Origin: Bacillota bacterium
GTDB taxonomy: Bacteria > Bacillota > Limnochordia > DTU080 > JAAYLA01
Length of the DNA stretch: 64,000 nt
Assembly (NCBI GenBank): GCA_012522135.1
Contig: JAAYLA010000375.1
Location: forward strand, 20,309-84,308
Direction of reading: 5' to 3'
The position numbers and the translations under genes are program-made. The notes below the pieces were generated by a model, which saw only the letters and a list, made by a program, of their open reading frames with translations, made no database searches and was not told where the DNA came from. Positions 1,524 to 59,997 of the stretch are shown in pieces (position 1 is the stretch's first letter; each line of letters starts with the position of its first letter).

Positions 1524-1535
1524 ACCATCGCCCCC

Positions 1536-6177: not shown

Positions 6178-6192
6178 GGACGCGCCTCCCCG

Positions 6193-7979: not shown

Positions 7980-8508
7980 TCGCTTCGCCCCCAACGTTCT
8001 CGAGTTTCGGCGCGTGGAACCGGCCTTGCCGCGCGGGAGTGGGCTGCTGCGCCATCGCTCTGGGGCCTTGCAGCGGGTAGTCTTTGCGCAGGGGGTGCCC
8101 GTCCCAGTTATCCGGCATCAAGATTCGCGTCAGGTTCGGATGGCCCGTAAAGACGACTCCGAACAGGTCGTAAACTTCCCGCTCCGCGGCGGCGGCCGCA
8201 GGCCACAGGGACGCGACGGAGGGCACCTCGGGTTTCGCGTCGTCCTTCGGGCTGACGCGCAAGCGAATCCGCCGCAGCGCCGCCGTGTCGAGCAGGTGGT
8301 AGACGACTTCAAAGCGGGGCCGCCGGGGCAAGTAGTCCACGCCGCCCACGTCGAGCAGCAGGTCGAAGCCGTCCTCCCGCAGCCAGCCCGCCACCTCGAG
8401 CAGGCCGTCGGGGTCGACCTTCACCTGCGGAATTTCGAAGGGCGTAGGCATCTCCTCCACCCACTGGGGATAGCGCTCGCACAAAAAACGCACGTACGGC
8501 TCAGGCAC
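7966..8508 (-). CDS. nuoC: NADH-quinone oxidoreductase subunit C (30 kDa)
   Basis: 180-aa NuoC-like sequence; its position fits. Confidence 0.85.
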
Positions 8509-8986
8509 GCCGCATCAGACCACCTTTCGCCCGCCCGGACGCAATGGCATCCTGCAGCTTGAGTACGGCGTCGAGCACCGCGTCAGGCGTGGGCGGACAA
8601 CCCGGCACGTAAACATCGACCGGCAGCACCTCGTCGACGCCTTGTACAATCGCGTAGTTGTCGAAAATGCCGCCGCTCGACGCACACGCGCCCATGGCGA
8701 TCACCCACTTGGGCTCGGGCATTTGCTGGTAAATCCGTTCAATCACCGGCACCATCTTGTTCGAAAGGCGACCGGATACGATCATCAAGTTGGCATGGCG
8801 GGGTGAGGCACGGAACACCTCGGCGCCGAACCGGGCCGAGTCGTAGCGCGGTCCCGGCAGGTTCATCATCTCGATCGCGCAGCACGCCAGGCCAAAGGTG
8901 AGCGGCCAGATCGATGACTTCTGGGCCCAGCGCACGAATTTGTCGATGGTCGTGACAATGAAAGAATCTCCGCTGCTCACTGCCAC
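8501..8986 (-). CDS. nuoB: NADH-quinone oxidoreductase subunit B (20 kDa, N2 cluster)
   Basis: [10 protein letters not shown]...GACASSGG...GCPP motifs. A GTG start follows an AAGGGGGG RBS and overlaps the nuoA end. Confidence 0.9.
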
Positions 8987-9325
8987 TCGAATCCCCCCTT
9001 CTTCCACACGTACAGATCGCCGAGAATGAAGACGATCAGGAAGGGCACCATAACGTAGAAGCCCCATGGACCGAGGTCTTTGAGGGAGACGGCCCATGGG
9101 TAGAAAGCAACGGCCTCTACGTCAAAGACGACGAAGAGCATGGCGATGAGGTAGAACTTGACCGAGAAGCGGCCCATGAGCGGCGGGGTCGGATACCCGC
9201 TTTCGTACGGCAAATATTTTGCCGGCTCTGGGGACCTAGGACCTACGTAAGTGGCAATGAGCGAGATGACGATCGGCACCAGAAGGGCAAAGAGCACATA
9301 GATGAAGAGGGGCGTGTAAGCGCTC
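8977..9325 (-). CDS. nuoA: NADH-quinone oxidoreductase subunit A
   Basis: Three-TM protein [20 protein letters not shown].... The start is placed at the second GTG, after an AGGAGGAG RBS. Confidence 0.85.
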
Positions 9326-9533
9326 ACGTGAACTCCTCCTGTCACGCCCTGCCGCCGCGGGCAGTCGCAGTCCGGTCAGAAGTCGGTCCAATGGTACCAC
9401 ATGTACCTGCCATTTGTAAAGTGAACGCGGGCACAATGTCCTTTTCCTTACGCCCTCTGCACGTGACATGCCTCCGGCGGGTCCGGTAGCTTTGCCCGGT
9501 AGTTTTGCCCGTCCCAAGGCGGTTCGCCCTATC

Positions 9534-13457: not shown

Positions 13458-13497
13458 TGCACCCTCCGTCAGATTCCTGTCTTAACGCTCCGGCCCG

Positions 13498-16400: not shown

Positions 16401-16977
16401 TGCGGAGAAGTGCCTCGGCCGCCTCTCCTAAATCCGAATCGGGGTCGGCGTACTTGTCGGCGATGTGCTCGACGTAGTCACGGTAAAGGAGGCTCAAATC
16501 GTGGAGTTTCTTCCTCAAGAGCGGCGAAGGAGGACCGCCGGCCGCGGTCGCCTGGCGCTCGATGTCGTCCGGAGAGTACCCATGCGCTCGAAATTCGGAA
16601 AAAGTACGGCCGAGCCGTTCGATAAATCCCGCTTCCCGCACGACTTGGTGATACAGCTGCAATGCGCCCCGGCGCCGGTGGACCAAGGCTCGCAGAAGCA
16701 TCGTCCGGCCGACGTCGGTTAGGCGCGGGCGCAACGCGCCGCCGGTTTCCTGGAAGATCAGGTGGGCGAGGCGCTTGAAACTGAGGATGCGGGCCCGGGC
16801 GGAACCTTCCACCCCGACTGCGATGAGCCCCTGTTCCATCTGGAAGGTGGCCTGTTCCGGAACGAGCAAGATGAGCGGGGGTCCGAAGGGCGCTCCACGC
16901 TGGGCATCCCGTACCGCTTCCAGACAATAATGCGTCTTTCCCGTACCCGCCCTTCCCAAGACAAGACGGACGCTCAT
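13498..16977 (-). CDS. addB: ATP-dependent helicase/deoxyribonuclease subunit B (Fe-S nuclease)
   Basis: 1159 aa; N-terminal GRAGTGKT P-loop and a C-terminal CNRCPYHAVC Cys cluster typical of the AddB iron-staple nuclease. Confidence 0.9.
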   Translation of the reverse strand: MSVRLVLGRAGTGKTHYCLEAVRDAQRGAPFGPPLILLVPEQATFQMEQGLIAVGVEGSARARILSFKRLAHLIFQETGGALRPRLTDVGRTMLLRALVHRRRGALQLYHQVVREAGFIERLGRTFSEFRAHGYSPDDIERQATAAGGPPSPLLRKKLHDLSLLYRDYVEHIADKYADPDSDLGEAAEALLRSGLLRGAEIWIDGFAGFTPQEYRLLYALIQVAKRTHVSLCLDPDEFLRLQSAPEEEVERSLFRLPLETARELLAIAKQSGVPVEEPVVLRHGAERPSRFRHPALLHLEQNWEDASAPPYREAAECVRIERADDRTAEVESVATEIQRLVRLEGYRYQEISVIVRSLDTYAAHIAAVFTRMGIPYFIDSRRDMLFHPLVHALTAALEAVSTGWQSEPIMRFLKTDFTPLPRARVDLLENYVLEHGVTGRAWVDERPWSFGRKLWRDEDDDAASAPMDGDEWTIDEDRRLAVRPLQQLSERIGRGKRFTPREAAEALWNFLVETEAERRMAGWIEEARGRNDPELALLHAQVWSATVGLLDEMAGVLPEDPIDLAELTAMLDEAFRNLRLGLIPPKLDQVLVGAVDRSRQPDVRAVFVLGLVDREFPAVPQEDALLTDEERELLAASGLTLGDTSRSRMDVEQFYGYIALTRASERLYLSAPLSDGQGRALLPSAFLARAKRLLPRAREGRARRFGGFDLARIVTPQQAAAFVVTGLRLDPDNPTVLDAYEWLVTHPDYAPLVRPTLRSLVYSNAVAPLLPELAAALYGEPLVTSVSRLERFAACPFQHFARYGLRLEERAVLRLDPARIGTLTHAVLKAYVDWVREHGLDWETIRDEEAYAVVDRLTEAAARELVGEVLLSSGRQRYLVDLARRTVRTAVRLLNEQMRAGDFRPVATELAFGRPRDEVAGWQLPIAGGGAVQLVGVIDRLDTWRHDGTTYVRVVDYKGYERGVALADVLAGLELQLIVYLGVAADHLGAAPAGAFYQPVRDPFVPVDSDFDPDAAWALRKTKLKARGILSSDGEGEVALAMDRSVVPSSTSSLFPFGLNKDGSFRARSSVVSGAYLELLIDYVRDCASELAGRILRGEHDVRPFRRKDNTRACNRCPYHAVCRFDVLVEGNEYRYIDPLDDKEVWSRLRGDATAVPAS

Positions 16978-23926: not shown

Positions 23927-25450
23927 TTAAAGCTCCAGATCTCCAAGTCCCGGTGCTTTGTGGAGCTCTGCGAAAAGCTCCACCAGCCCCTGATCGAACT
24001 TGCGACCGGCTTCTTTCGCCAGGTACTCCATCGCGCGTGGGTGCAGCCGATCATCCGGTTCACCGATTGTCGCTTGCCGTACGTACGCGTCTGCAATCGC
24101 CAAAATCCTCGCCGTGACCGGGATCTCGTCTCCGGCCAATCCGTCCGGATACCCCCTCCCGTCCACTCGCTCGTGCTGGTGACGGATGGCCTGCCTACAC
24201 TCATCCGAAACCGCCACCATCCGCAACACCCGTTCCGTCAACACCAGACTGCGATCGTCGTCGCCCTCGCCTCTCGCCTCGCCGGCCAAAAAATCGCCGC
24301 CCAACGTGACGCCGACGTTTGCCAGACGGGCCGCTTGGCTGAGGCTCTCTCGGGAAGCAGCGGGCAGGCCGTAAGCGTCGGCTAGAATAAGGGCGTATTT
24401 CGTGACGAGTTCCGCCTTGCCCCGCAGCTCGGGATAGAGACCTTCCAAAGTGTCCATCAGACCGAGCAACGTCGTCAGATTCCGCAGAATCTCACGGTCT
24501 TGCCACTCGATGCCTACCCGAGACGTCGTAGTTCCGTGCCGCGCGTGGATGACGTCGTCGAGTTCACGGGTAACGGCCGCCCATTCCCGCCACTGGTTGA
24601 GCTGCCCGTAGTACGTGCTGGCCCGTTGCAAATACCCGATCGCCCCCTGCCTGTCCCCGGTACGGGCGGCGACGGAGCCGAAGACCCGGCACAGGCGGGC
24701 GACCTCCCGCTTGTCCATAAAAGCTACGTTTTCCCACAAGGTCTGCAGCGCATTCCGGCAATACCTGATGGCCGCCGGCAGATCGCCCCGGTGGTAGTAC
24801 AGCCGGCCCAGCTCCGTCAACGTATAGACCGACCGCCCTACCTCGTTTAGCCGCTCCTTCATCGCCAGGGCCTGCTGCAAGAGCTTTTCACCTTGGTCGT
24901 AGTCGCCCGTTTCGATACAGATCAGGCCGAGGTTATTCAAGGCTCGACTGATGCCGTTCGCATCGCCGATGGCCTGGCAACGCTGCAGTGCGGCGTAATT
25001 GTGCCGGTACGCTTGTTCCCATTCGCCACGGGCTATGTACAGTTTGCCGAGTAACAGGTCGACTTCCCCGCGATACTCCGCGTCACCCTCCTGCTCCAAC
25101 ACCTGCCATACCTTCTGCGCGTAATAGAGCGATTCATCCACTACGCCCTTCATGTCGTAGGCCAACGCCAGATTGAAGAGCACCATCTTGCTGCGGTGCC
25201 TACCTACTGCGGCGCCGTGTTTTTCAATGAGCGAGAGGGCCTCCTCAAACTGCTTGAGCGCACGATCGGGCTCGTTCATATTGAGCCAGTTCACGCCCGA
25301 CAGCAGCAGGACTTGGACTTGATCCCGATAAAGCCCCTTCGCCTTGACCAGCTCGTAAAGTTGGCTTAACACGTCGCGCGCCGCGAGCGGCAGTCCTCCG
25401 TGAGTTTTCACGAGGAAGAGACTGTAGCTTCGCATGCGCTCCAAATTCAC
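23927..25450 (-). CDS. TPR-repeat protein with a C-terminal degenerate HD-GYP domain
   Basis: Multiple TPR-like repeats. The C-terminus has HQHERVDGRGYPDGLAGDEIP (the HHE...GYP signature), but the LHDIGK position reads LANVGV. The probable start is the GTG at 25450 after GGGGAG. Confidence 0.7.
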   Translation of the reverse strand: MNLERMRSYSLFLVKTHGGLPLAARDVLSQLYELVKAKGLYRDQVQVLLLSGVNWLNMNEPDRALKQFEEALSLIEKHGAAVGRHRSKMVLFNLALAYDMKGVVDESLYYAQKVWQVLEQEGDAEYRGEVDLLLGKLYIARGEWEQAYRHNYAALQRCQAIGDANGISRALNNLGLICIETGDYDQGEKLLQQALAMKERLNEVGRSVYTLTELGRLYYHRGDLPAAIRYCRNALQTLWENVAFMDKREVARLCRVFGSVAARTGDRQGAIGYLQRASTYYGQLNQWREWAAVTRELDDVIHARHGTTTSRVGIEWQDREILRNLTTLLGLMDTLEGLYPELRGKAELVTKYALILADAYGLPAASRESLSQAARLANVGVTLGGDFLAGEARGEGDDDRSLVLTERVLRMVAVSDECRQAIRHQHERVDGRGYPDGLAGDEIPVTARILAIADAYVRQATIGEPDDRLHPRAMEYLAKEAGRKFDQGLVELFAELHKAPGLGDLEL

Positions 25451-25765
25451 GACAGTCTCCCCTTTAAGCAAAAGGCTCGTTCCAAGCCGAAGCAAGGGCA
25501 TGCCAGGAACGAGCACTACGTCCTCATGCGGAGCGGCAACCAGACAGTCATAGCTGCGCGTGCGCGCGGCCTTAGACTCACGGCTTTGCGTCCCCGGCTT
25601 TCACCGGGTTTGCCCTTGACTTCTCCGTATTCAATTGAGTGCGCTCTTCGCGCGCAGAAGGATCACGCGTCATGAAGTTCGACCAAATGGCCCGGATTCC
25701 TGCTCAGTTTCGAAAAATTTCTTTAACGGACGAGGAATGCACACGGAATCAGAGAGCAGGCTCGT

Positions 25766-34508: not shown

Positions 34509-34769
34509 ATGCATCCTTGGCCCGAGTTGACCCGGCGCATCGAGCTCGACAACCGCGGACTTGAGCCCCCGGAGCCGATGGTGCGCATCTTGACCGCCCT
34601 GAAACATTTAGGGGACGGCGAGTACATTTTGGCCCACAACGATCGTGAGCCCATGTTTCTCTATCCACGGCTCGACGAGATGGGTTACGTGTACCGGGCC
34701 GAGCTGCAGGAGGACGGTTCTTGCCTCATTGCCATCCGCAAACCTCATGGCGGGGAGACAAGACCGTGA
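34509..34769 (+). CDS. DUF2249 domain protein (paralog a)
   Basis: LDNRGLEPPEPMVRILTALKHLGDGEYILAHNDREPMFLYPRLDEMGY matches the DUF2249 pattern; GAGGGAGGAA RBS. Confidence 0.7.
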   Translation: MHPWPELTRRIELDNRGLEPPEPMVRILTALKHLGDGEYILAHNDREPMFLYPRLDEMGYVYRAELQEDGSCLIAIRKPHGGETRP

Positions 34770-36040
34770 ACTTGCCCGGACTGGACGTAGAAAGCAGACC
34801 CCGGCCGGCGGTGCCGTCCCTGTACATCCAGACGGGCCTGCTTTTTCTCATCGGCGCGGCCGCGGTAATCGCTCTGCACCCTGGAGCGCTCATGGCCTCG
34901 CCCCGCCACAACCCGGTGACGCTCGTGGTCACCCACATGCTGGTTCTGGGCTTCGGCACGCTCATCACCTTCGGGGCCCTCGAGCAAATGGTACCGGTCA
35001 TCACAGGGCGCAAGGTCACCTCGGAACGCTACAGCCGCACGGCTTATGCCCTGTTTGTTCCCGGACTCCTGCTGCAGCTCGCGGGCTTTGCCGCGTGGCA
35101 GCCCTATCTGATCGCGGCCGGCGGAACCCTCATCACCTTGGGTACGGCGCTCTTTACGCTGCCTTACGTTCCGACCCTGTGGGAGCGCCTGCGGAGCGAC
35201 TTGACTGCTCCGTTCATCTTCTCGTCCCTCATCTACGTCAATTTGACCGTGTTCCTGGGTGTCGCGTCGGCCGTGCAGCTCAAAACCCTCTGGTGGCCGT
35301 GGCTGTTTTGGCACGGGCTGCCCTTCCACCTCATACTGGGAGGCCTCGGCTGGTTCACGCAGATTATCATCGGGGTGTCCTACAAGCTCATTCCTATGTT
35401 CATTACTACGACCGGCGCCGGTGATCTCCATGTGCGGCGCGTCTGCGCCTCGTTCAACATAGGCCTTCTGCTTGCCCTGCTCTCGGCCGCAGGCAGCTGG
35501 ACGGCCGGCGCCGCGGCAGGGCTGACCGTGGTAGGTGTGACATGTGCCGTGTACGCTTGGGATGTGCGCGGGATGGTCAAACGACGCATCCGCCGGCGCA
35601 TCGGGGCGGGAATGAAGCAAAGCCTGGTCGCCGTGTTGTACTTGATCCTTGCGGCTGCTCTGTCCGCCCTGCTCCTGGCCCGGGCCCTGCCCATAGACGG
35701 CCTGTCCGCAGACCGGTGGGTCGTCGTCGCCGGCCTGCTCTTCGCCTGCGGCTGGGTGGGGAGCGTGATCCTTGGCATGCTGTCCAAAATCGTGCCCATG
35801 CTCGTCTGGCTCGATCTGTTTGCCGGCCGCGTGGGTGAGCGGGATACGCCTACCATAGCCCAGTTGATCGACGAACGAGCCGTCGGGTTGGGAGGAATCG
35901 GCTACCACGCAGGTCTTCTTACCCTTGCCGTCGCTTTCGCCGCGGGACACCCGGTCGCTGCCACATGGGCGGCCGCATTGTTTCTCCTCGGCGTGGTCGT
36001 CCTGGCCGGCACGCTGATCGGAGTCTGGTCGGCGCGCTGA
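34766..36040 (+). CDS. NnrS-like 12-TM membrane protein (paralog 1)
   Basis: The GTG start overlaps the DUF2249a stop (GTGA). ~12 TM helices with conserved His; paralogous to 36726..37979 (NPVTLVVTHMLVLGFGTLITFGALEQMVPV vs HPLILGVVHATVLGWGVSVALGSLQQMAPV). The NnrS family assignment is tentative. Confidence 0.55.
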   Translation: MNLPGLDVESRPRPAVPSLYIQTGLLFLIGAAAVIALHPGALMASPRHNPVTLVVTHMLVLGFGTLITFGALEQMVPVITGRKVTSERYSRTAYALFVPGLLLQLAGFAAWQPYLIAAGGTLITLGTALFTLPYVPTLWERLRSDLTAPFIFSSLIYVNLTVFLGVASAVQLKTLWWPWLFWHGLPFHLILGGLGWFTQIIIGVSYKLIPMFITTTGAGDLHVRRVCASFNIGLLLALLSAAGSWTAGAAAGLTVVGVTCAVYAWDVRGMVKRRIRRRIGAGMKQSLVAVLYLILAAALSALLLARALPIDGLSADRWVVVAGLLFACGWVGSVILGMLSKIVPMLVWLDLFAGRVGERDTPTIAQLIDERAVGLGGIGYHAGLLTLAVAFAAGHPVAATWAAALFLLGVVVLAGTLIGVWSAR

Positions 36041-36110
36041 GACCGGTCTTCACGTATCGAGGCTGGGTGGCATGAACGTACTCGCATTACCGGACTAGGA
36101 GGAAGGAAAT

Positions 36111-36416
36111 GTGGAAGCGCGTTTGGATACCGTGCGGGAGGCGCTGCGCAGCGTCGTCGATCCCGAGCTGCATTTGAACATCGTCGACTTGGGGCTGATT
36201 TACAGCATTAAAGAGTCCGCCCCGGGAAAAGTGCACATCACGATGACGCTCACGACTCCGGGCTGCCCCGTCGGTTCGGCGATCCTGCAGGCCGTCGAGC
36301 GAGTCGTGGAGCAGCTGCCCGGCATCGAGGAAGTCGACGTCGAGCTGACCTTTGAACCGCGCTGGACACCGGAGTTCATCACAGACGAAGGCCGCCGCTT
36401 CCTGAACATGCTGTGA
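36111..36416 (+). CDS. DUF59 / MIP18-family Fe-S cluster assembly protein (SufT-like)
   Basis: VVDPELHLNIVDLGLIYSI...TLTTPGCP, typical of the PF01883 family; GTG after AGGAGGAAGGAAA. Confidence 0.75.
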   Translation: MEARLDTVREALRSVVDPELHLNIVDLGLIYSIKESAPGKVHITMTLTTPGCPVGSAILQAVERVVEQLPGIEEVDVELTFEPRWTPEFITDEGRRFLNML

Positions 36417-36489
36417 GGTCGGAGCGGAAGTGCAAAGCGGTCACCCCGATCGAACGTCTCCTGAATCAACGTTCTTGGAGGTGATAAGA

Positions 36490-36720
36490 ATGACAGAGCC
36501 CATTGTATTGGATGTGCGGGAAGATCTGCGCCGAGGACGCGAGCCCTTTCACAAGATCATGGCAGCCGTCGACGCTCTGGCGCCCGGTCAGGAGCTCATT
36601 CTCCTCTGTTCGCTCGAACCCCGCCCTTTGTATAAAGTGCTGGGCGCGAAGGGCTTTTCTCACCGCACAGAGGAAAGCGACGACGGGGACTGGAAGGTCA
36701 CGTTTTTCCGGCCGGAGTAG
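36490..36720 (+). CDS. DUF2249 domain protein (paralog b)
   Basis: VLDVREDLRRGREPFHKIMAAVDALAPGQELILLCSLEPRPLYKVLGAKGF; GGAGGTGA RBS. Confidence 0.7.
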   Translation: MTEPIVLDVREDLRRGREPFHKIMAAVDALAPGQELILLCSLEPRPLYKVLGAKGFSHRTEESDDGDWKVTFFRPE

Positions 36721-36725
36721 AACGC

Positions 36726-37979
36726 TCAGCGCATCAAAGTCCGCAACAAGTTGCCGGTGGCGACCAGGGCGCCGAGGCTCATCAGCACCGCATACCCTGT
36801 GACGTTGAACCCGAAAGGCGCGACCGCCAAGAGCCCGATCAAACCGGCATTATAAAGCGCAAGTCCGAGCCAGGCCGCGCCCTCGTGCACCATGTGACGA
36901 AAAGAGGGGACGCCTGGCTCGTCCGTTCGGTGCCAGTATTTATTGTGCCAGACGAAAAAGGGCAGGATGCGGTGAAGGTATCCTAGAATGGCGCAGCTGA
37001 GCCACCCGAAAAGACCGGCCAGACCCAACCACGCTACGAACCGGCCGTTTGCGCCCAGCCACGGAAAGGCGATAGCCCCCGCCGCGACCGCAGCTCCATA
37101 CAGGTGGGACAGCCGCACGTAGGTGACCATCGGATGCATCCGGACAGTCGGCCTGGGGGCAAAAACGGCCCGGGTGTCCCATAAAAAGAGAAGGACCGAC
37201 GCCGCGACCACGACGCGGCCCGCCTGCGCAAGCCAAGGAAGGCCCGCACCGCCGCCGAAGGCTAAGGCCCCGATTCCCGCGTGGAGCATCACGACGACGG
37301 GCCGGTCGAAGTTGGGAGCGAACTTCTTCGGCGTCAGACCGAAAAAGGGCAAAAGGTGGTACGAGATGCCCAGAACGAGCATGGCGAACCAGCCCACGAG
37401 CCCCGCCGCGGTGTGAGCGGCAAAGGCAGCTTGCCATCCGGATCCCAGCCAATTCGCAGCAAGGTTGACGGCGAGCGCGGCGCCGAGGAGCACCGTCACG
37501 GCCAGGTAGAAAAGGGCACTCTTTACGAAGGGCCGGATGCGCGACGCCGCTGGACTGCCGCCCGGAGCCATCGTGCGGACCACATTGACCAGGGCCGTCC
37601 CGACCGCCAGGAGCACGAGAAGGCTGCCGAGCACGAGGAGAACCGGGGCAAAGCGCACCATCCCCCACACCAGACAGGCGACTCCTATGCCGAAGCCGTA
37701 GGCACCGGCCGCGGCCAGGTGTTCACTGTAAAGCCCCGTACCGAAGACGACGGGAGCCATCTGCTGCAGCGAGCCGAGCGCTACGCTGACGCCCCACCCG
37801 AGCACCGTCGCGTGCACCACGCCCAGGATGAGCGGATGCCGGTACAGCCCCGACTCGTACGGAACGGCGGCGAAGGGTAAGAGCACCGCGACCCCCGCAA
37901 AGGCTAGGAGCCCGAACGCAAAGTAAGGGCCTAATGCGAACAGGGGGACGAGATTGTCGCGGGTGACCCGGATGCCCAC
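36726..37979 (-). CDS. NnrS-like 12-TM membrane protein (paralog 2)
   Basis: The GTG start sits directly after the TAA of the upstream regulator gene; paralog of 34766..36040. Confidence 0.55.
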   Translation of the reverse strand: MGIRVTRDNLVPLFALGPYFAFGLLAFAGVAVLLPFAAVPYESGLYRHPLILGVVHATVLGWGVSVALGSLQQMAPVVFGTGLYSEHLAAAGAYGFGIGVACLVWGMVRFAPVLLVLGSLLVLLAVGTALVNVVRTMAPGGSPAASRIRPFVKSALFYLAVTVLLGAALAVNLAANWLGSGWQAAFAAHTAAGLVGWFAMLVLGISYHLLPFFGLTPKKFAPNFDRPVVVMLHAGIGALAFGGGAGLPWLAQAGRVVVAASVLLFLWDTRAVFAPRPTVRMHPMVTYVRLSHLYGAAVAAGAIAFPWLGANGRFVAWLGLAGLFGWLSCAILGYLHRILPFFVWHNKYWHRTDEPGVPSFRHMVHEGAAWLGLALYNAGLIGLLAVAPFGFNVTGYAVLMSLGALVATGNLLRTLMR

Positions 37980-38666
37980 TTACGCCTCACTCCACGATTG
38001 CAAGATGAGGGGCTTGAGCACGATGATGCGGGAACCCTCGATCCGCAAGACTCCCTCCCGCTGAAACTGCTGCAAAAGGCGGGTGGCCGTCTCGCGTGAG
38101 GCCCCGATCCAACTGCCCAGCTCTTGCCGCGTCAACGACAAATCGACCTCGATGCCCTCCTCGGTGGCCCGGCCGTGGCGCTCGCACAGATCGAGGATGC
38201 GGCGGGCCAAGCGGGCCGCCACGTTCTGCAGCGACATCCGCGTAATCTCCTCCTGCGACTCGCGCATCCGTTGGGCCAAGAGTCGCAGCATGCGCATGAG
38301 GATGTCGGGATTCGCCAGGGCGATGCGCTCGAAGTCGGAAAACTGGATTTGAGCGAGTTCGGAATCTTCCAACACCTCGGCGTTCGCCGGGTACGGACCG
38401 CCGTCGAGGAACGGAACGACGGCTACGGGTTCGCCGTCTCCGAGGAGGTGTAAAATCTGCTCCCGCCCGTCGGCGGCCAACCGATACACTTTCACCCTGC
38501 CCGTGTAGATGAAAAACAGCGCCCGGCTCGGCTCGCCTTCCACGAAGAGGATTTGTCCCTTGCGGTAGCGCGCCGTGACGACGACGGGCTCGAGAAGTCT
38601 TCTCTGCTCGTCCGACAGCCCGGAGAAAAAGGGAATGCGGCGCAAGACGTACTGTGCACGCTCCAT
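37980..38666 (-). CDS. Crp/Fnr-family transcriptional regulator (CRP-like recognition helix)
   Basis: N-terminal cNMP-binding-like beta-roll and a C-terminal HTH with RETATRLL (R-E-xxx-R as in E. coli CRP); ATG after AGGAGGG. Confidence 0.8.
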   Translation of the reverse strand: MERAQYVLRRIPFFSGLSDEQRRLLEPVVVTARYRKGQILFVEGEPSRALFFIYTGRVKVYRLAADGREQILHLLGDGEPVAVVPFLDGGPYPANAEVLEDSELAQIQFSDFERIALANPDILMRMLRLLAQRMRESQEEITRMSLQNVAARLARRILDLCERHGRATEEGIEVDLSLTRQELGSWIGASRETATRLLQQFQREGVLRIEGSRIIVLKPLILQSWSEA

Positions 38667-38772
38667 GGGGCCCTCCTGTACCGGTGCGGGATGTTTCCAG
38701 TCTACCAGATCGACGGGCCCGAAACCACTGTGACAGGCATCGGTAGGCAGGTGCCGCGGGGCGGACGCGCGT

Positions 38773-38788
38773 GTGTGATCCGGATCAC
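38773..38788. promoter_or_regulatory. perfect CRP-type palindrome TGTGATCCGGATCACA (TGTGA-N6-TCACA)
   Basis: 16-bp perfect inverted repeat in the divergent region between the Crp-family regulator and nirK. Confidence 0.6.
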
Positions 38789-38919
38789 AGCGCGGTGAGA
38801 GAATTCGCATCGTTGCCTACGCCGGCGGTCACTGATCCTGCGCCGTGCCTTTGATACGCTGGAACGGGAAGACGAAGCAGGAGGAAACAATCGCTCGCGG
38901 GCCCCGGGAGGTGCGTTGT

Positions 38920-40290
38920 ATGGAACGTTTCGGTCGCAACACCGTTTGGCTCACCTTGGTCATAGCAGGCCTCATACTAATCGTCGGACTGCTTGACCGC
39001 GGAGCGGGCACACACAGCGCGCCTACCGGTTCTCAGGCCGCAGTGCCCGCGGGCGATGAAATCGTAGTAGAACTGGCGATGATGCGATTCGAACCGAGCC
39101 GCATACAAGTTCCCCCCGGCACCACCATTCGCTTCGTCAATCGCGACCCCATGTTGCACAACGTAGTGCATGCGCGGCCGGACACCCTCGGCAAAGGGCC
39201 TGAAAAGTTCCGCTCGCCGCAGCTCGGTCCGGGAGACAGCTGGACCCTCACCCTGACGGTGGAGGGCGTGTACGATATTCTGTGCGACATCGCGGGCCAC
39301 TTCCTCGCCGGCATGGTCGGCCAAATTGTGGTGACCCAGGATACGGCTGCCCGGGAGGCCGAGCCCGCCGGAACCGCCGGGCAGCCCGTCGCCCGCGATC
39401 CCCGGGACCTGCCCGGCCCCATTGATCGGGATGAGCCCACGGTCGTTCGTTTCGACCTGCGTACCGTGGAAGTGGAAGGCCAGCTCGCGGAAGGCATCAC
39501 TTTCACCTACTGGACGTACAACGGTACCGTGCCCGGTCCCCTGCTGCGCGTGCGCCAGGGCGATACGGTCGAGCTGTACCTTACGAATGATGCGTCGAGC
39601 ACCCAACCCCATTCGATCGATCTGCACGCCGTCACGGGTCCCGGAGGCGGCGCCGCCGTGACACAGGTCGCCCCCGGCGAGACGAAGGCTTTCCGCTTCA
39701 AGGCCCTGCATCCCGGCGTCTACGTATACCATTGCGCGACGCCGCACATCCCGACCCACATCGCCATGGGCATGTACGGGCTAATCGTCGTCGAGCCGCC
39801 CGAGGGACTTGTGCCCGTCGACCACGAGTTTTACGTGATGCAGGGCGAAGTCTACGCCGATCTGCGCCCCGGTTCCCAAGGCCACGCTGCGCACGATCCG
39901 GCGGCGATGTGGGATGAGCGACCGAATTTCGTCGTGTTCAACGGCCAGTTCCAAGCTCTCACCGGAGACCGCGCCATGCGGGTCAACGTCGGCGACACGG
40001 TGCGCATCTTCTTCGGTGTCGGTGGGCCGAACTTGCCGTCGTCGCTGCACTTGATCGGTGAAGTATTCGACCGGCTCCATCCGGAAGGCGCGGCAGAACC
40101 CGCAACCCACGTACAGACCACGCTCGTACCCGCCGGCGGCGCCACGTGGGTTGAGTTCACCGTCGACGTTCCGGGAACCTACACGCTCGTCGACCACTCG
40201 CTCAGCCGGGCCGTCGACAAGGGAGCCTTGGCCACGATAGAGGCCGTAGGCCCCGGCGCACCGGACATTTTCGCCGCGCTCGACGACTGA
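38920..40290 (+). CDS. nirK: copper-containing nitrite reductase NirK with an N-terminal cupredoxin domain
   Basis: ATG after GGGAGGTG. The N-terminal cupredoxin carries H..C....H....M ligands (HNVV...CDIAGHFLAGM). The NirK core has HSIDLH (T1/T2 His and catalytic Asp) and HCATPHIPTHIAMGMYG. Confidence 0.85.
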   Translation: MERFGRNTVWLTLVIAGLILIVGLLDRGAGTHSAPTGSQAAVPAGDEIVVELAMMRFEPSRIQVPPGTTIRFVNRDPMLHNVVHARPDTLGKGPEKFRSPQLGPGDSWTLTLTVEGVYDILCDIAGHFLAGMVGQIVVTQDTAAREAEPAGTAGQPVARDPRDLPGPIDRDEPTVVRFDLRTVEVEGQLAEGITFTYWTYNGTVPGPLLRVRQGDTVELYLTNDASSTQPHSIDLHAVTGPGGGAAVTQVAPGETKAFRFKALHPGVYVYHCATPHIPTHIAMGMYGLIVVEPPEGLVPVDHEFYVMQGEVYADLRPGSQGHAAHDPAAMWDERPNFVVFNGQFQALTGDRAMRVNVGDTVRIFFGVGGPNLPSSLHLIGEVFDRLHPEGAAEPATHVQTTLVPAGGATWVEFTVDVPGTYTLVDHSLSRAVDKGALATIEAVGPGAPDIFAALDD

Positions 40291-40412
40291 ACAGCACTTC
40301 GGACGGACGGGCCTTCGGAGCACCGGCAGGAAACAGGTCCAGCGCACAAGAATAACAGGTGGGACGGGCCCGTCAGGTCGGCCTGCAGCTTGAGGAGGTA
40401 CGCCCCCGTCCG

Positions 40413-43400
40413 ATGAGTTTGCAACGTGTGTCCGTGCACCGTCCCGTCGCGCTCTCCATGTGCGTTCTCGCCGCCTTGGTCATCGGCCTGATCTCCCTTG
40501 ATCGCATCGGCATCGATCTTTTGCCCAATTTGGAGTATCCTACGCTGGCCGTTGTGACCGTTTACCCGAATGCGGATGCCGAGAGCGTCGAAAGCGACGT
40601 CACGCTGCCTATTGAACGCACTTTATCGACCGTATCGGGACTGCGGCAGCTTGAGTCGCTGAGCATGGAGAACGCGTCGCTCGTCATGGCCACCTTCGAG
40701 TGGGGCACCGACTTAGGCGACGCCTTCGAGGAAATCAACTCGCTGCTCAGCGTGGCGAGCCTTCTGCTTCCATCCGATGTCCAGCGCCCGATCGTCGTCA
40801 AGCTCGATCCGTCCCAAGTGCCCGTTCTCAATATCGCGGTGACCGGCGAGACGGACCTTGTTGCGTTGACGGGCCGCGTAGAAAGGGAAATCGTGCCGGT
40901 CATCGAGCGCGTTCCTGGCGTCGCCCAAGTCAGTGTAGCCGGCGGCGCGTACCCGCAGATCAGCGTCTACTACGACACCCAGGCACTCCGGGAAAGGGCG
41001 CGGCTCAATCCCCTGGATATCCAGGCGATGCTGCAATACCAAAACGCCGTCGTACCCGCGGGTACACTTGAGGTACGTCCGGAAGAACTGGGCCTTGAGG
41101 CGGGTGACGTACGCCGGTTCCCGCTGCGCGTCGGTGCCAACTTGGAAAGCATCGACGACCTGCGCAGCCTCGTCATCTCCGTCGAACAGCCCGCGACGGG
41201 AGGCGACGCGTTCGGCCTGTCGGCGCTGCTTCCGCCCGACGTCATCCGCCTCGGCGATGTGGCGCAGATCGTCGAAGAAGTGCGGCGCGTGGAAGGGCAC
41301 ACGCGGGTCAACGGCGAGCCGGCCGTTGTCCTGCGCGTGCTGAAAGAGAGCGAAGCGAACACCGTCGAAGTCTCCCGGGGGGTCCTCGCGGCGGTCGCTG
41401 CCTTGACCGGGCAACTTGCGGGCGATCTAACCCTTGAGATCGTCACCGACCAGGCGCAATTCATCAACGAGTCCATCGACAATTTGTCCTGGAGCGCCCT
41501 TGTCGGTGCCGTCCTCGCCGTCCTGGTCCTCACCCTTTTCCTGCGTTCGTGGCGCGATATCGTCGTCATCGCGGTGGCGATCCCGCTGGCGTTTGCCGTC
41601 GCCGTCACCTTGCTTCATTTCGGCGGTTACACCCTCAACTTGATGACCCTGGGCGGACTGGCCATTGCCGTAGGAATGCTCGTCGACAATGCGATCGTCG
41701 TGCTCGAGAACATTTTCCGCTTGCGGGGCCTTGGCCTGTCGCCTAAGGAGGCGGCCGTCCAGGGGGCGAGCGAGATGGCGCCGGCGATCGTCGCGTCGAC
41801 GCTTACGACGGTAGCCGTATTCGTCCCGCTTATCTTCATGCGCAGTTTAGCCGGGTATCTGTTCAAGGAGTTGTCCCTGGCCGTCGTCTGCGCGCTGGCG
41901 GCGTCGCTGCTCGTTGCTCTCACCGTCGTTCCGATGCTAGCGGCCTACCTCCCCGATCGGTCGAGGAGCACCGCGCGGGCAGCCACTTCCCGGCCGGCGG
42001 AGGGCGTCCATCAAGGGATCGCAGATCGGTTGACCCCCCACTACGCCCGGGCGATTCGGAAGGTGCTCCGTCGTCCTTGGCTTGGGGTCGTGATCGCGGG
42101 CGCCTTCACCATAAGCCTGGTGTTCCTCCCCAGGCTCCTCGACGTCGGTTTCGTGCCCGAGATGGACGGCAGCCTCGTGACAATCGACATTCAGCTCCCG
42201 CCGGGCACGCCCCTGCACACCACGGACAAGGTCGTGCGCGACGTCGAAGCCTATCTGGAAGCCCTGCCCGAAGTCGCTCTGCTGTCGGTGCAGGTGGGAA
42301 ACCAAGGCGGCACGGATTATCTCAGCATCGTACAGGAGATGCCGGTCAACCAGGCCCGGGTTCACGCGCTCCTTGTCCCGCCCGGCGAGCGCTCTCGCTC
42401 GTCCCATGAACTGGCCCGGATCATCGGCAGCGAACTGCCCCTGCCCCCGGAGGCCGCCGTGCGGATCAGCGCCGACCGGGCCGTCGATGCACTCGGCGAT
42501 GATTTCGCGAGCGGGCTGACGCTGGAGATCCTCGGCCCGGAATGGGATGTACTCCAGTCCGTCGCGGGCCGCATCGCCGAAGAGCTGAGACGGACCCCCG
42601 GCTTCGTCAACGTCACTTCCACCGCAGAAGATGTGAACCAAGTGCTCTTTTTTGAAGTAGATAGGGTGCAGGCCGGAAGAGCGTTGCTGCCGGCCGGGCA
42701 GGTCGGCCTGACGGTCCGCCTGGCGCTGACGGGTCTTCAAGCGACTACGCTGCACGTCGACGGGCGGTCGGTGCCGGTAGTCATCAAGCCCAGTCCGAGC
42801 GAGACCGAAAATCTGGAGGCCTTGCAGTCGCTGCGGGTGTGGAATTTGCAAAGCGACGCGACAGGCATCCCGCAGGCGGCCCGCTTCGAAGCGATCACCA
42901 CGGCGGACGCCCCGGTCATCACCGATGCGCCGAGAACCATTCGGCACCTCGATCGACAACGGGTCGCGACGGTGAAAGCCCAGCTCGACGGCGTTGACCT
43001 CGGCAAGGCGCGGCGGCTGGCCGAGCAGATCGTGGCTGCTACGGATCTTCCAGCAGGTTACGAGGTGCGAATGGCAGGAATTCATAGGACGCTGGATGAA
43101 TCAATTAAGGAGTTGGTTCTTGCGCTAGGGCTTGCGGTGCTGTTCGTGTACATGGTGATGGCAGCCCAGTTCGAGTCCTTGCGGTATCCGGGCATCATCA
43201 TGATTACCGTGCCCCTGTCGGCGGCGGGAGGCTTCTTCGCCTTGTGGTTGACCGGCCAGCAGCTGAACGTACCGGCCTTCCTCGGACTCCTCCTGCTCGT
43301 CGGCATTGCGGTGAACAACGGCATCGTTCTGGTCGACACGATCGGCCGCTTCCGGCGTTCGTTGCCCCTGGAAGAGGCGATCGTCGAAGCGTGCCGCGTG

Positions 43401-43613
43401 CGGCTCCGGCCCATTTTGATGACCGCGCTGACAACGATTCTGGGGCTGGTTCCGCTCGCCCTCGGGTGGGGAGAAGGCACCGAAATTCAGGTTCCCTTGG
43501 CCCTGGCAGCGCTGGGCGGGTTGATCTCGGGAACGCTACTCACCCTTTTTGTGGTGCCGGCCTTTTACCGGCTCTTCTCTGGCACCATTGAGACGCCCGC
43601 ACGGGCCGATTGA
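40413..43613 (+). CDS. RND-family efflux transporter (AcrB/HAE-like)
   Basis: ~1060 aa, 12 TM plus two large periplasmic loops; the start is ambiguous (40359 GTG-type or the 40413 ATG). Confidence 0.8.
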   Translation: MSLQRVSVHRPVALSMCVLAALVIGLISLDRIGIDLLPNLEYPTLAVVTVYPNADAESVESDVTLPIERTLSTVSGLRQLESLSMENASLVMATFEWGTDLGDAFEEINSLLSVASLLLPSDVQRPIVVKLDPSQVPVLNIAVTGETDLVALTGRVEREIVPVIERVPGVAQVSVAGGAYPQISVYYDTQALRERARLNPLDIQAMLQYQNAVVPAGTLEVRPEELGLEAGDVRRFPLRVGANLESIDDLRSLVISVEQPATGGDAFGLSALLPPDVIRLGDVAQIVEEVRRVEGHTRVNGEPAVVLRVLKESEANTVEVSRGVLAAVAALTGQLAGDLTLEIVTDQAQFINESIDNLSWSALVGAVLAVLVLTLFLRSWRDIVVIAVAIPLAFAVAVTLLHFGGYTLNLMTLGGLAIAVGMLVDNAIVVLENIFRLRGLGLSPKEAAVQGASEMAPAIVASTLTTVAVFVPLIFMRSLAGYLFKELSLAVVCALAASLLVALTVVPMLAAYLPDRSRSTARAATSRPAEGVHQGIADRLTPHYARAIRKVLRRPWLGVVIAGAFTISLVFLPRLLDVGFVPEMDGSLVTIDIQLPPGTPLHTTDKVVRDVEAYLEALPEVALLSVQVGNQGGTDYLSIVQEMPVNQARVHALLVPPGERSRSSHELARIIGSELPLPPEAAVRISADRAVDALGDDFASGLTLEILGPEWDVLQSVAGRIAEELRRTPGFVNVTSTAEDVNQVLFFEVDRVQAGRALLPAGQVGLTVRLALTGLQATTLHVDGRSVPVVIKPSPSETENLEALQSLRVWNLQSDATGIPQAARFEAITTADAPVITDAPRTIRHLDRQRVATVKAQLDGVDLGKARRLAEQIVAATDLPAGYEVRMAGIHRTLDESIKELVLALGLAVLFVYMVMAAQFESLRYPGIIMITVPLSAAGGFFALWLTGQQLNVPAFLGLLLLVGIAVNNGIVLVDTIGRFRRSLPLEEAIVEACRVRLRPILMTALTTILGLVPLALGWGEGTEIQVPLALAALGGLISGTLLTLFVVPAFYRLFSGTIETPARAD

Positions 43614-45355: not shown

Positions 45356-46147
45356 TCAACCTGTAGATGCCGACTCCTCCGGGTTTTCAAGCCCGCCGCC
45401 GTCCGGATAGGCGACCGCCATTAACGTCAATCCGTGGGGCGGAGCGGTGCTGCCCAACTCCTCGCGCCGGCCGGACGCCAAAGCCTTCGGTACGCACTCG
45501 GCGCTGCGCCGGCCCAAGCCGACTTCGAGGAGGGTACCCGCCATGATGCGCACCATGTTGTAAAGAAACCCCGAACCCTCAATCTCGAAGTGGACAAGGT
45601 CGTTCTCACGCCAGACGTCGGCTCTGTACATGCGGCGCACGGTGCTTTTGCTGCCTCCCCCGGTTGAACGGAAGGCAGCAAAGTCGTGCTCGCCGACGAA
45701 GTGCCGCGCCGCGCGGCGCATTTTCTCTACGTCGACGGGACGCGGCACGAACAGTGCGTAGCGGTGCCAAAAGGGGGACGGTGTCGCACGCACGAGCCAC
45801 GTATAGCGGTACGTCTTGCTCAAGGCCCAGTACCGTGCATGAAAGTCTCCAGGCACTTCTGCGGCCTCGCGCACTTTGATGTCCCACGGCAGTTGCGTAT
45901 TGACGGCAGCGGGAAAGCGCTCGACCGGAATGCGCGACCGGGTGTGAAAGTTCACCACCTGGCCGCGGGCGTGCACCCCCGCGTCGGTGCGGCCTGCTCC
46001 GATCACCTGCACGGGTTCTTGGCAAGTCCGGGCGAGTGCCTCTTGCAGCACGCTTTGTATGGTCGGACGGTCAGGCCGGCCCTGATCTTGAAAGCCGCAG
46101 TAGCCGGTACCGTCGTATTCCACTACCAACTTGATGTTGCGGGTCAC
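45356..46147 (-). CDS. truA: tRNA pseudouridine(38-40) synthase
   Basis: IKLVVEYDGTGYCGFQDQ...GAGRTDAGVHA catalytic Asp motif; GTG after GAGGGAGGG overlapping the ecf ORF stop. Confidence 0.9.
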   Translation of the reverse strand: MTRNIKLVVEYDGTGYCGFQDQGRPDRPTIQSVLQEALARTCQEPVQVIGAGRTDAGVHARGQVVNFHTRSRIPVERFPAAVNTQLPWDIKVREAAEVPGDFHARYWALSKTYRYTWLVRATPSPFWHRYALFVPRPVDVEKMRRAARHFVGEHDFAAFRSTGGGSKSTVRRMYRADVWRENDLVHFEIEGSGFLYNMVRIMAGTLLEVGLGRRSAECVPKALASGRREELGSTAPPHGLTLMAVAYPDGGGLENPEESASTG

Positions 46148-48453
46148 GAAGCCCTCCCTCCAATGCGGTTGGCCAGCACAATGACAACGGCCGAGCACAC
46201 AAGCGCCGCAAAGACCAGGATGTCCCGCACATGCCAGGACTCCGTCCGCGGCCGCCATGGCGCGCCGTCGGCGTATCCTCGGAGGACTAAAGCGTCTCCG
46301 AGCCGCTCGGCTCTGCGGAGTACAGCGGTGCTCAAGGGCACGACCAGCGTGACGACGCGAGACCACACTCCCCGGACACCGCGCAAAAACTGCACTCCCC
46401 GCATCGTTTGGGCCCGCGTGATGCGCGCTGCCTCCTCAGTGAGCCTAGGAAACATGGCCATGGCCACAAGGGTGCCCGCGAGAAGCGTTCCGAGGGGCAG
46501 ACCGACGCGCTCGAGAGGCCGCAAGAGCGCGGAAAACGCTTCCATCATCCGGCTGAGGCCCGCCGCACGGCCCACCCAGAGCAAGGCGGCAACCGTCAAG
46601 AACATCCGCAGTCCAGCGAAGGCGCCCGTTCCGAACAGGCCCCTAGGTCCCGCGGCGGCAACTCCCCCGCCGCCGAAAACGGCGGCGATCAGCATAAACG
46701 GCAATAAGGCCAGGAACGCTCCCTTGACTGTACGCCACGGCGTCTTGGTCAGGGCCAATAGGGTGAGGACAACGGCCCCGGCCGCCGCAAGGCCCGACCA
46801 ACGGGTTACCGAGACGACGCTGAGGGCAAGGACAGACGCGCCGAGGACGAGAGAGCGCGCATCGGTCCGGTTTCCGGGGGCTTCGCTGCGCTCTGAGGCC
46901 GAAACTGCAGGAGCTTCCCTTCGCACCTCCTCGCCGCTTTCGTCGTCGCTTTCCAGGCTCCAGACGGCGGTCTCGTGTTGCGTCGTTACCTTGCCGTCTT
47001 CAAGCCGGACTACCCGGGATGCGGCCCCGTAGAGCAGGTCGTGATCGTGCGTCGTGAACAATACCCCAGCCCCGTCCTTCTCTACGAGCTCGCGCAGTAG
47101 GCGGGCCACTATGGCGGCGGAAGGCCGGTCGAGACCGGCTGTCGGCTCGTCGAGCAAGTACAGCCGCGGCCGCTGTGCGAGGCACGCGGCCAGGGCCACT
47201 TTGCGCCTTTCCCCTCCTGAAAGGGCAAACGGCGATCGATCAAGAAACTCGGGCCCTAATCCGACCGCCCCAAGGGCCCCTTCGATGCGCTCCCGCCACT
47301 CTGCCTGCGGAATGCCGAGGCAACGCAGACCGAAGGTAAGCTCCTCCTTCACCGTCGCCGCGAAGAGCTGGGCCTCCGGCTGCTGCATCGCCAGTCCGAC
47401 GCCAGGCAGCAACGCCCGCACCGCCTTGGCCCGGGCCGCCCGCATTCTCCGGCCTCTGCCGGCGGGCGGAATGGGCGTGCCCAGCACCGTAAGCCGACCG
47501 CCGCCGTGCGGTTCGAGCCCCGCCGCCACTTGGAGTAAGGTGCTTTTTCCGGCACCCGAACGTCCGCCCAAGGCAACGGCCTCTCCCTCGTAAACCGCCA
47601 AGTCCACACCGGTTAAGACCGGCCGGGCACTGGCCGGATAGCGAAAAGCCAACGCCTCCATGCGCAATACTGCCGGCGTATTGCCGCCCCGCTGCCGCCG
47701 CAGTCGCCAGGCACCGGGTACCCCTTGCGGCGTCGCCTGCGGCCGTCCGATGCCCCACTCGTCGAGCCGGTCGCCGAGTTCCCACAGGCGGCGCGGCGGG
47801 CCGTCGAAGACAAGCCGTCCTTTCCCGAGCACTACCACTCGGTCGGCCTGCGCCGCCTCTTCAGGACTGTGTGTGATCCAAAGGCAACCCGCCCCGGCTG
47901 AACGCAAGTACTCGCCGACCACGCATGCCGTCAGACGCGCGGAAAGGGGGTCGGCGAAGGCATTTGGCTCGTCCAGGACCAGCAGGTCGGGATGGCGAGC
48001 CAGCGCCCCGGCCAGCGCAATCCGCTGCAGCTCCCCGCCCGAGAGGGCGCTCGTAGGCGAATCTAAGGCATGGAGCATGTCTACCCGGCTGAGCCATTGG
48101 CGAATGCGCAAGGCCACCTCGTCCTCGGATAAGCCGAGAGGCGCAAGGGCCAGACGCAGGTCGTCGCCGACCGTCAGCCCTACCACGTGATGTTCAGGGT
48201 GCTGTGACAAGTAACCGATGCGCAAAGGCGGCGGTGTCCGCAGCCGCCCCGAGGCCGGGGAGACCAGGCCTACGGCAAGGTACGCCAGCGTCGATTTGCC
48301 CGACCCGTTCGCGCCCATCACGGCGACCCATTCTCCGGGTTCCACGCGCAAGGACAGTGCGTCCAAAGCGCGCAGCTCACCGCCGCGGGGCCCCGGATAG
48401 GTGACCGTGACATCCTCGAAGGAAAGGAGGGGCGAGAAACGAGGCATATTCAC
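46144..48453 (-). CDS. ecfA1A2T: energy-coupling factor (ECF) transporter, apparent single-polypeptide fusion EcfA1-EcfA2-EcfT
   Basis: One 769-aa open frame: ATPase 1 (GANGSGKST, LSGGELQR, LLVLDEP), ATPase 2 (GRSGAGKST, LSGGERRK, LYLLDEPTAGLD), an acidic linker, then a 5-TM EcfT-like domain with coupling-helix motifs TRAQTMRGVQF and RRAERLGDALVLRGY. Confidence 0.75.
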   Translation of the reverse strand: MNMPRFSPLLSFEDVTVTYPGPRGGELRALDALSLRVEPGEWVAVMGANGSGKSTLAYLAVGLVSPASGRLRTPPPLRIGYLSQHPEHHVVGLTVGDDLRLALAPLGLSEDEVALRIRQWLSRVDMLHALDSPTSALSGGELQRIALAGALARHPDLLVLDEPNAFADPLSARLTACVVGEYLRSAGAGCLWITHSPEEAAQADRVVVLGKGRLVFDGPPRRLWELGDRLDEWGIGRPQATPQGVPGAWRLRRQRGGNTPAVLRMEALAFRYPASARPVLTGVDLAVYEGEAVALGGRSGAGKSTLLQVAAGLEPHGGGRLTVLGTPIPPAGRGRRMRAARAKAVRALLPGVGLAMQQPEAQLFAATVKEELTFGLRCLGIPQAEWRERIEGALGAVGLGPEFLDRSPFALSGGERRKVALAACLAQRPRLYLLDEPTAGLDRPSAAIVARLLRELVEKDGAGVLFTTHDHDLLYGAASRVVRLEDGKVTTQHETAVWSLESDDESGEEVRREAPAVSASERSEAPGNRTDARSLVLGASVLALSVVSVTRWSGLAAAGAVVLTLLALTKTPWRTVKGAFLALLPFMLIAAVFGGGGVAAAGPRGLFGTGAFAGLRMFLTVAALLWVGRAAGLSRMMEAFSALLRPLERVGLPLGTLLAGTLVAMAMFPRLTEEAARITRAQTMRGVQFLRGVRGVWSRVVTLVVPLSTAVLRRAERLGDALVLRGYADGAPWRPRTESWHVRDILVFAALVCSAVVIVLANRIGGRAS

Positions 48454-48892: not shown

Positions 48893-49834
48893 TCAGTCGT
48901 CCGACTCGCGCAAGGAGAGGTTGAGCGCGGCCAACTTCTCCTTCACTTCCTGCAACGACTTCTTGCCGAGATTCCGCACTTTCATCATGTCTTCTTCCGT
49001 CTTGCGTGTCAGTTCCGCGACCGTATTGATTCCAGCCCGCTTCAGGCAGTTGTAGGAGCGGACGGACAGGTCGAGCTCCTCGATGGTCATCTCCAGGAGG
49101 CGATCCTTCTCTTCCTCTTCCTTCTCCACCATGATCTCCACATCTTCCGGCAGATCGGTCAAGGAGACGAAAAGGCGCAAATGCTCGATCAGGATCTTCG
49201 CCGACAGACTGACCGCTTCATCGGGCGCGATGCTGCCGTCGGTGACTACCTCCAGGATCAGACGGTCGTAGTCCGTCTGCTGGCCGACACGCGTATCCTC
49301 GATCTCGTAGTTGACCCGCCTGACCGGAGTAAAGATCGAGTCGATGGCAATCACGCCGATCGGCTGATCAGGCGTCTTGTTCCGCTCGGCCGACACATAG
49401 CCCCGTCCCCGCTTGAAGGTGAGCTCCATCTCCAACTTGGCGCCCTTCTCCAAGGTGGCAATATGAAGATCAGGGTTGAGGATCTCGACGTCCGCCGGAA
49501 CTTCGATGTCAGCGGCCGTTACCGGTCCCTCGCGCTCAACCGAAAGGCGCCCAACGACGACCTCATCGGTGTGCATTTTGACGATAAGCTCCTTCAAGTT
49601 GAGCACGATGTCGGTGGTATCCTCAGCAACGCCCGGAATCGTAGAAAACTCATGGAGCACACCGTCGATACGGATCGAAGTGACCGCCGCGCCGGGTAAG
49701 GACGACAGCAAAATCCGCCGCAGCGAGTTCCCCAATGTGATGCCGTAACCGCGCTCGAGGGGCTCTACGACGAACTTGCCGTATACGCCGTCCATCTCTA
49801 CGGTCTCGATTCTGGGCTTTTCGATTTCGATCAT
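48893..49834 (-). CDS. rpoA: DNA-directed RNA polymerase subunit alpha
   Basis: [13 protein letters not shown]...; 313 aa with a C-terminal domain. Confidence 0.95.
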
Positions 49835-51559: not shown

Positions 51560-51784
51560 CTACTTCTTGCGGTAAACGATTCGCCCGCGGCTCAGATCAT
51601 AGGGGGAAAGCTCTACCGTCACTCGGTCACCCGGAATGATACGGATAAAATGCATGCGCATCTTCCCGGAGATGTGAGCCAAAACGACGTGGCCGTTGTC
51701 GAGTTCGACGCGAAACATGGCGTTCGGGAGGGGCTCAATGACCGTCCCTTCAACTTCGATTACGTCTTGCTTACCCAGTGTCAT
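51560..51784 (-). CDS. infA: translation initiation factor IF-1
   Basis: [43 protein letters not shown]..., matches IF-1; the start is placed at the ATG after GAGGAGG. Confidence 0.9.
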
Positions 51785-52091
51785 CGTCCTCCTCACCGTC
51801 ATGATTGAAGGAATCCGCAATCTCCTGTAGAGCCTGCCTCAGCTCTGCGTCCGCACCTTTATGTCCTGCGTCCGGGCTCAACGGAATACCAGTGAGAACC
51901 TGGTCGTAGACGAGCAAATGCTTCGGGTTCTTTCGCTTCGGACGCGCGATCGGCCTGCGCTCTCCGTCCGCCACGTACAAGAAACCCTCTTTGTCCTGAT
52001 CGATGACCACGTACCACCGATGCCGGTCCCGGCCGCGTACGGATCGCACCACCTGGCCCTTCTCGACCTCCCGGCCCCGGGCCAAGCCCAT
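51771..52091 (-). CDS. KOW domain-containing RNA-binding protein (map-infA spacer gene, ybzG-like)
   Basis: [20 protein letters not shown]...[21 protein letters not shown] matches the small KOW-protein family found between map and infA; the start is uncertain. Confidence 0.6.
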
Positions 52092-52155
52092 AGCAGTGAC
52101 ACGCCTGTCTCCGTCACTCGTCTCGGCAGCCTCAGAGCGCATAACCATCCCCTCG

Positions 52156-59365: not shown

Positions 59366-59569
59366 TTACGCCCTCTGCAGGCCGAGTTCACGCTCTCGCA
59401 TGATGGTCTTCACCCGGGCGATGTCTTTACGCACCTCACGGATGCGCATCGGATTGTCGAGCTGACCGGTTGCTGCCTGGAAACGGAGATTGAACAGTTC
59501 TTCCTTCAGGTCAGCAAGCTTCCGCTCCAGTTCGGCGCTGCTCAAATCGCGAAAAGCTTTCGCCTTCAT
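59366..59569 (-). CDS. rpmC: 50S ribosomal protein L29
   Basis: [31 protein letters not shown]... Confidence 0.95.
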
Positions 59570-59997
59570 TACGAGTCACCACCCGCGAGATCTTGCCTCA
59601 CAACGATCTTCGTGGCGATCGGAAGCTTGTGTGAGGCCAAGCGCAAGGCCTCCCGCGCCACCTCTTCCCGCACGCCGGCCAGTTCAAACATGATCCGACC
59701 GGGCTTGACGACAGCCACTCAGTACTCGGGAGCGCCCTTACCCGAACCCATGCGCACCTCGGCGGGCTTCTTGGTCACGGGCTTGTCGGGAAAGATCTTG
59801 ATCCAAACCTTTCCGCCACGGCGAATGTGACGCGTCATCGCCACACGGGCCGCCTCGATCTGCCGGTTGGTAATCCAGCCGGGCTCCAGGGCCTGCAATC
59901 CGTAGTCACCAAAGGTGAGCTGATTTCCTCGCAGGGCCTTTCCGGTTCTACGGCCTCGGTGCACGCGGCGGTACTTGACACGCTTCGGTATCAGCAC
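59569..59997 (-). CDS. rplP: 50S ribosomal protein L16, interrupted by an in-frame TGA (59719-59721) at the conserved Trp codon
   Basis: N-terminal 92 aa [11 protein letters not shown]...GSGKGAPEY, then TGA, then in-frame [49 protein letters not shown] to a TAA at 59569-59571. Every L16 has Trp here (B. subtilis ...GKGAPEGWVAVVKPG...). Confidence 0.75.

Follow-up and report, generated by a model that had tools for sequence, protein, structure and literature searches.

A probable single-base error at the invariant tryptophan codon of rplP in a Bacillota genome assembly

uL16 is an essential, single-copy ribosomal protein present once in each ribosome, and the loss of its C-terminal third should not be tolerated. 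UGA is the leakiest of the stop codons, and near-cognate read-through of it inserts Trp, so that a real mutant with UGA in place of a Trp codon would still make some wild-type protein. UGA has been reassigned to Trp under genetic code 4, which is found in Mycoplasmatales, some endosymbionts and Patescibacteria. Among genomes that keep the standard code, suppressor tRNAs are reported in ~0.3%, and a tRNA-Trp with a 4-bp anticodon stem promotes UGA read-through in E. coli (PMC13092985). Local errors in uncurated metagenome-assembled genomes (MAGs) are also known to bring wrong protein sequences into databases (PMC7111523).

Here we describe an in-frame TGA in rplP, the gene for uL16 (L16), in a 64,000-nucleotide stretch of DNA from a Bacillota bacterium (hereafter the window). 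The locus resembles the known consensus and assembly errors of MAGs (PMC7111523) in that an isolated substitution breaks an essential and otherwise perfectly conserved gene and is absent from all other conspecific assemblies, and in that comparable breaks occur in rpsC, rpsK, rpoA and truA of low-coverage sister contigs. It differs from them in that the window, free of private indels over 46 kb, is not obviously of low quality. It shares with leaky UGA read-through and suppressor tRNAs in standard-code bacteria the property that Trp insertion would restore wild-type L16. However, natural read-through at its known levels falls far short of the amount required for a stoichiometric ribosomal protein, and the stop in the window lacks a stimulatory context or structure and has no counterpart in relatives. 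As under genetic code 4, UGA stands at a conserved Trp position, but here it does so only once and in one gene, TGA terminates more genes of the window than any other stop, the GC content is 62%, close strains use TGG and no cognate tRNA was seen in the window.

The interrupted rplP and its conspecific counterparts

The original prediction placed an in-frame TGA at 59719-59721 within rplP, and the stop is present there, with the two halves of the gene in one shared frame and the minus-strand translation ending AGGDS*. The features of the locus are:

59569..59997, minus strand: rplP (ribosomal protein uL16), 142 codons plus the true stop TAA, GTG start, broken at codon 93
59719..59721, minus strand: in-frame TGA replacing the conserved Trp codon (TGG), rplP codon 93, read as TCA on the plus strand
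59719: the single differing base, T on the plus strand (A in the coding sense) against C (G) in nine of nine other assemblies
59719..59997, minus strand: N-terminal open reading frame of 92 codons upstream of the stop, from the translation of the window
59569..59718, minus strand: C-terminal open reading frame of 49 codons after the stop, starting at the GTG (Val94) that adjoins the TGA

With W restored at codon 93, the product matches solved bacterial uL16 over residues 1-139 (E = 3e-66 for the Bacillus subtilis chain 3j9w_BP), with 58 uL16 sequences in the PDB matched in all, and alignment to the solved chains sets the stop against the Trp of the EGW/EYW motif. With rpsC on one side and rpmC on the other, the gene has its usual place, and the order rplV-rpsC-rplP-rpmC-rpsQ is the same in the window and in all sister loci. 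Both similarity and position in the S10 operon place it in the uL16 family, whereas the uninterrupted frame of ~140 codons, present in nine of nine sisters, is lacking in the window. The intact 142-aa L16 called in sister contigs carries PF00252. The broken copy remains rplP, and only this copy of the sequence is interrupted.

Conspecific assemblies were found through exact protein sequences. The neighboring S3 protein led to ten contigs from independent metagenome assemblies, eight of which cover rplP, and a SecY look-up gave two long contigs covering the gene, one of them already counted, for a total of nine assemblies from nine samples. The sister contigs, one of which is named as an anaerobic digester metagenome, share 99.7%–99.9% identity with the window across as much as 6.7 kb. 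Codon 93 is TGG in all nine assemblies, and an uninterrupted 142-aa L16 is called in each of the eight S3-derived contigs that cover rplP. Over the 429 nt of the gene, the codon-93 base is the sole difference from the window in seven of these eight loci, and the eighth has one synonymous change besides. Across the 6.7-kb alignment of the ribosomal operon, the window carries a single private allele, G>A at 59719. Intact L16 was matched exactly on 24 public contigs (NCBI, ENA, Logan), while neither the 92-aa nor the 49-aa fragment is on record in the public protein collection. A 30-mer around the site carrying TGR had no match in species-representative genomes, and in JGI metagenomes it retrieved only an unrelated contig bearing TGG.

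More distant relatives agree. No close relative was found in the species-representative genome set, where the best L16 match is 80% identical and belongs to an uncultured Bacillota MAG, and the aligned position is Trp, encoded by TGG, in all 80 loci retrieved from it. Over these 80 loci this upholds the claim of the original prediction that every L16 has Trp at this position, and its proposal of a single-base change from TGG to TGA is likewise sustained by the conspecific comparison: G>A on the coding strand is the sole base that makes codon 93 a stop. Because nine conspecific assemblies have TGG in an otherwise identical or nearly identical rplP, the change is of one base and private to this assembly; the Trp that it replaces is invariant, and TGA serves as an ordinary stop in this window.

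We put a probability of roughly 85% on the organism having TGG, with the A being a base or consensus error, or tracing back to a rare or damaged read from which the consensus was taken. Codon 93 of the organism's rplP would then encode Trp, and the A in the assembly would not be representative of the living population. It could have arisen as a single-base consensus error, or a rare variant or damaged read may have set the consensus where coverage was thin. Special decoding would not be involved, and the real protein would be an ordinary, full-length uL16 of 142 aa. That the base is wrong, as opposed to a real allele, we infer from the comparison of assemblies.

Private substitutions and the quality of the assembly

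A real TGG>TGA allele, though unlikely, is the alternative that survives best. It could be carried by the lineage or by a sizeable fraction of cells that survive on low-level UGA read-through by tRNA-Trp, or it could be present in dying cells or free DNA only. Comparison of the window with further conspecific contigs bears on this directly. Additional look-ups gave contigs that tile the window from 8.7 to 25.6 kb and from 34.4 to 64 kb. Over the 35.7 kb covered by at least three other assemblies there are 11 substitutions private to the window, and no private indels were found across 46 kb of comparison. With these private substitutions and without private indels, the window represents a strain a little apart from the others rather than an assembly of conspicuously poor quality, and because there are ten other private SNPs, a private SNP in the window is not suspicious by itself. 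Both the strain's distinctness and its freedom from private indels favor a real allele, as does the fact that G>A is the commonest spontaneous mutation.

The kinds of substitution observed argue in the other direction. The 11 private SNPs comprise three synonymous, seven missense and one nonsense change, compared with 14 synonymous and seven missense changes among the polymorphisms seen in at least two assemblies (Fisher's exact p = 0.06). When singletons are pooled over all assemblies, 58 are non-synonymous and 31 synonymous (p = 0.012 against the shared set). Given this non-synonymous excess over shared polymorphisms, singletons in these assemblies appear unfiltered by selection and look like errors or very recent mutations, and those of the window carry no sign of having passed selection. 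The nonsense allele is also absent from every other assembly of the species, and its truncated product is not on record. Read-through by tRNA-Trp would give exactly wild-type L16 (PMC13092985), but uL16 is needed at one copy per ribosome, for which read-through at the percent level would be insufficient. Moreover, the base directly 3′ of the TGA is G, and neither a known leaky context nor a stimulatory structure is present.

Broken essential genes are a common artefact in this species, since in low-coverage sister contigs (3-4.4x, according to the contig names) rpsC and rpsK are frameshifted, truA contains a stop and rpoA has a cluster of indels. All of these defects are seen in ENA ERZ2647963 NODE_111 (cov 4.4), in which rpsK and rpsC are split by frameshifts and the defects match window positions 45947-45948, 49625-49678, 50724 and 60343; they are plainly errors of assembly, and they affect essential genes of the same species. 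The sister loci L013 and L105 (3.1x and 3.5x) have similar breaks.

Two further observations concern the missense changes of the window. Five of the seven private ones lie in two adjacent genes at 38920-43613 on the plus strand, namely E139V and E194D in a multicopper oxidase and T413A, P535S and I718S in an AcrB-like transporter. This clustering may reflect strain divergence or recombination, or a locally weaker consensus. The window versions of the adk (K78R) and map (L245V) proteins have no match in the collections searched, and neither do those of thyA and of the 1088-aa and 895-aa open reading frames.

Use of TGA and other features of the window

TGA was said in the original prediction to be a genuine stop elsewhere in the window, and this is the case: the TGA of nuoF overlaps the GTG start of nuoG as GTGA at ~4894-4897. 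The TGA of rplD overlaps the ATG of rplW in the same manner, as ATGA, and ~29 of the 68 putative genes of the window end in TGA. A search for in-frame stops in other genes, which had been proposed as a check, covered 58 genes of the window with boundaries taken from gene calls in sister contigs, and rplP alone has an internal stop. A cruder scan for in-frame stops with coding signal on both sides yielded no second case: its hits were either antisense frames or true boundaries between genes, as where the stop of nuoE at 6193 precedes the start of nuoF at 6177. A search for tRNA genes in the window found none. In an Rfam search of the window no SECIS family reached the gathering threshold, the sole match being an unrelated c-di-GMP-I riboswitch. 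The 76 nt from the rplP stop onward do not fold significantly better than shuffled sequence (z = -1.58; 15 of 200 shuffles folded equally well).

TGA is not a sense codon in this window. Reassignment of UGA (codes 4 or 25) is recognized by TGA being unused as a terminator together with in-frame TGAs at conserved Trp or Gly positions of many genes, and the window shows neither. Programmed read-through is recognized by a stop conserved among relatives and by a stimulatory structure, but the codon is TGG in all nine conspecific assemblies and in all 80 distant relatives, and the downstream fold is the non-significant one given above. Bacterial selenoproteins are recognized by a SECIS hairpin downstream and Cys in homologues, and neither was found. 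The order of explanations in the original prediction, with error first and Trp-inserting read-through last, thus gains support from the normal use of TGA as a stop, the lack of any other in-frame stop and the lack of an RNA element.

Suppression or partial recoding specific to this strain, in which UGA is read as Trp by a tRNA-Trp with a UCA anticodon or a 4-bp anticodon stem, or through a weakened RF2, is very unlikely on these results. Such tRNAs do exist in bacteria and the affected codon is a Trp codon. However, the many genes that end in TGA include the tightly coupled ATGA and GTGA junctions, an in-frame TGA occurs in none of the 57 other genes checked, no tRNA gene lies in the window, the sister strains all have TGG and a GC content of 62% is unlike that of known UGA-recoded lineages. 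More doubtful still is a genuine TGA that has become fixed in a viable strain, with full-length L16 produced because Trp is efficiently inserted, for example by a strain-specific suppressor tRNA or a tRNA-Trp having a 4-bp anticodon stem. If true, a free-living bacterium with high GC and the standard code would here be at an early stage of UGA-to-Trp ambiguity.

A split L16, in which translation terminates at the TGA and restarts at the adjacent GTG (Val94) so that fragments of 92 and 49 aa assemble in the ribosome, is scarcely credible. GTG is a valid bacterial start, and stop/start pairs this close can be coupled by termination-reinitiation. Here, however, the GTG is merely a conserved Val codon present in all relatives, and no Shine-Dalgarno motif lies at normal spacing, the nearest AAGGG being 16 nt upstream; restart was rejected on these two grounds, the missing ribosome-binding site and the conserved Val codon. 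A split would also lose the invariant Trp and cut the beta-sheet core, and no such split is on record in the public protein collection. Selenocysteine insertion, although UGA is the Sec codon, is effectively refuted already, given that the aligned residue is Trp and not Cys in 80 of 80 relatives, that no SECIS family reached the Rfam threshold and the downstream fold is not significant, and that the sequence 3′ of the stop is identical in strains having TGG.

Several other features of the window are recorded here in their own right. The c-di-GMP-I riboswitch (RF01051, 25532-25624, minus strand, 71.8 bits, E = 4e-12) immediately precedes a 529-aa open reading frame (23927-25516, minus strand) for which no Pfam entry is on record, because its gene call in the sister contig is truncated by the contig edge. 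A single 767-aa open reading frame at 46144-48447 (minus strand) combines two ABC ATPase domains with a CbiQ (EcfT-like) domain and is flanked by rplQ and truA. Since ecfA1, ecfA2 and ecfT are usually separate genes at this place in Bacillota, it is apparently a fused energising module of an ECF transporter. The cluster at 34509-40290 encodes two DUF2249 proteins, an FeS_assembly_P protein, a Crp/Fnr-type regulator, two membrane proteins of ~420 aa without a Pfam match and a multicopper oxidase with a cupredoxin domain (NirK-like), and may be a denitrification or NO-related module. Between map and infA lies a 123-aa open reading frame (51771-52142, minus strand) that has no Pfam match, overlaps the infA start by 13 nt and is conserved in all sister contigs. 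The complex I (nuo) operon, including nuoE, nuoF and nuoG, occupies 1035-9345 (minus strand) and is followed by addB and addA at 9534-16977 (minus strand). The corresponding open reading frames of 1159 and 1307 aa had been guessed from their size to be rpoB and rpoC, which was rejected; they are AddB and AddA.

Significance for the annotation of rplP

With an error in the assembly as the preferred reading, the finding carries little weight as biology, and the likeliest outcome is the correction of one base. Its value lies in quality control. The probable error lies in an essential marker gene, where it would shorten the annotated L16 and might influence completeness estimates based on marker genes as well as phylogenies built on rplP. 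Conspecific assemblies can resolve such cases without reads. Should the TGA be real and dominant, it would be a natural case of UGA suppression in an essential gene.
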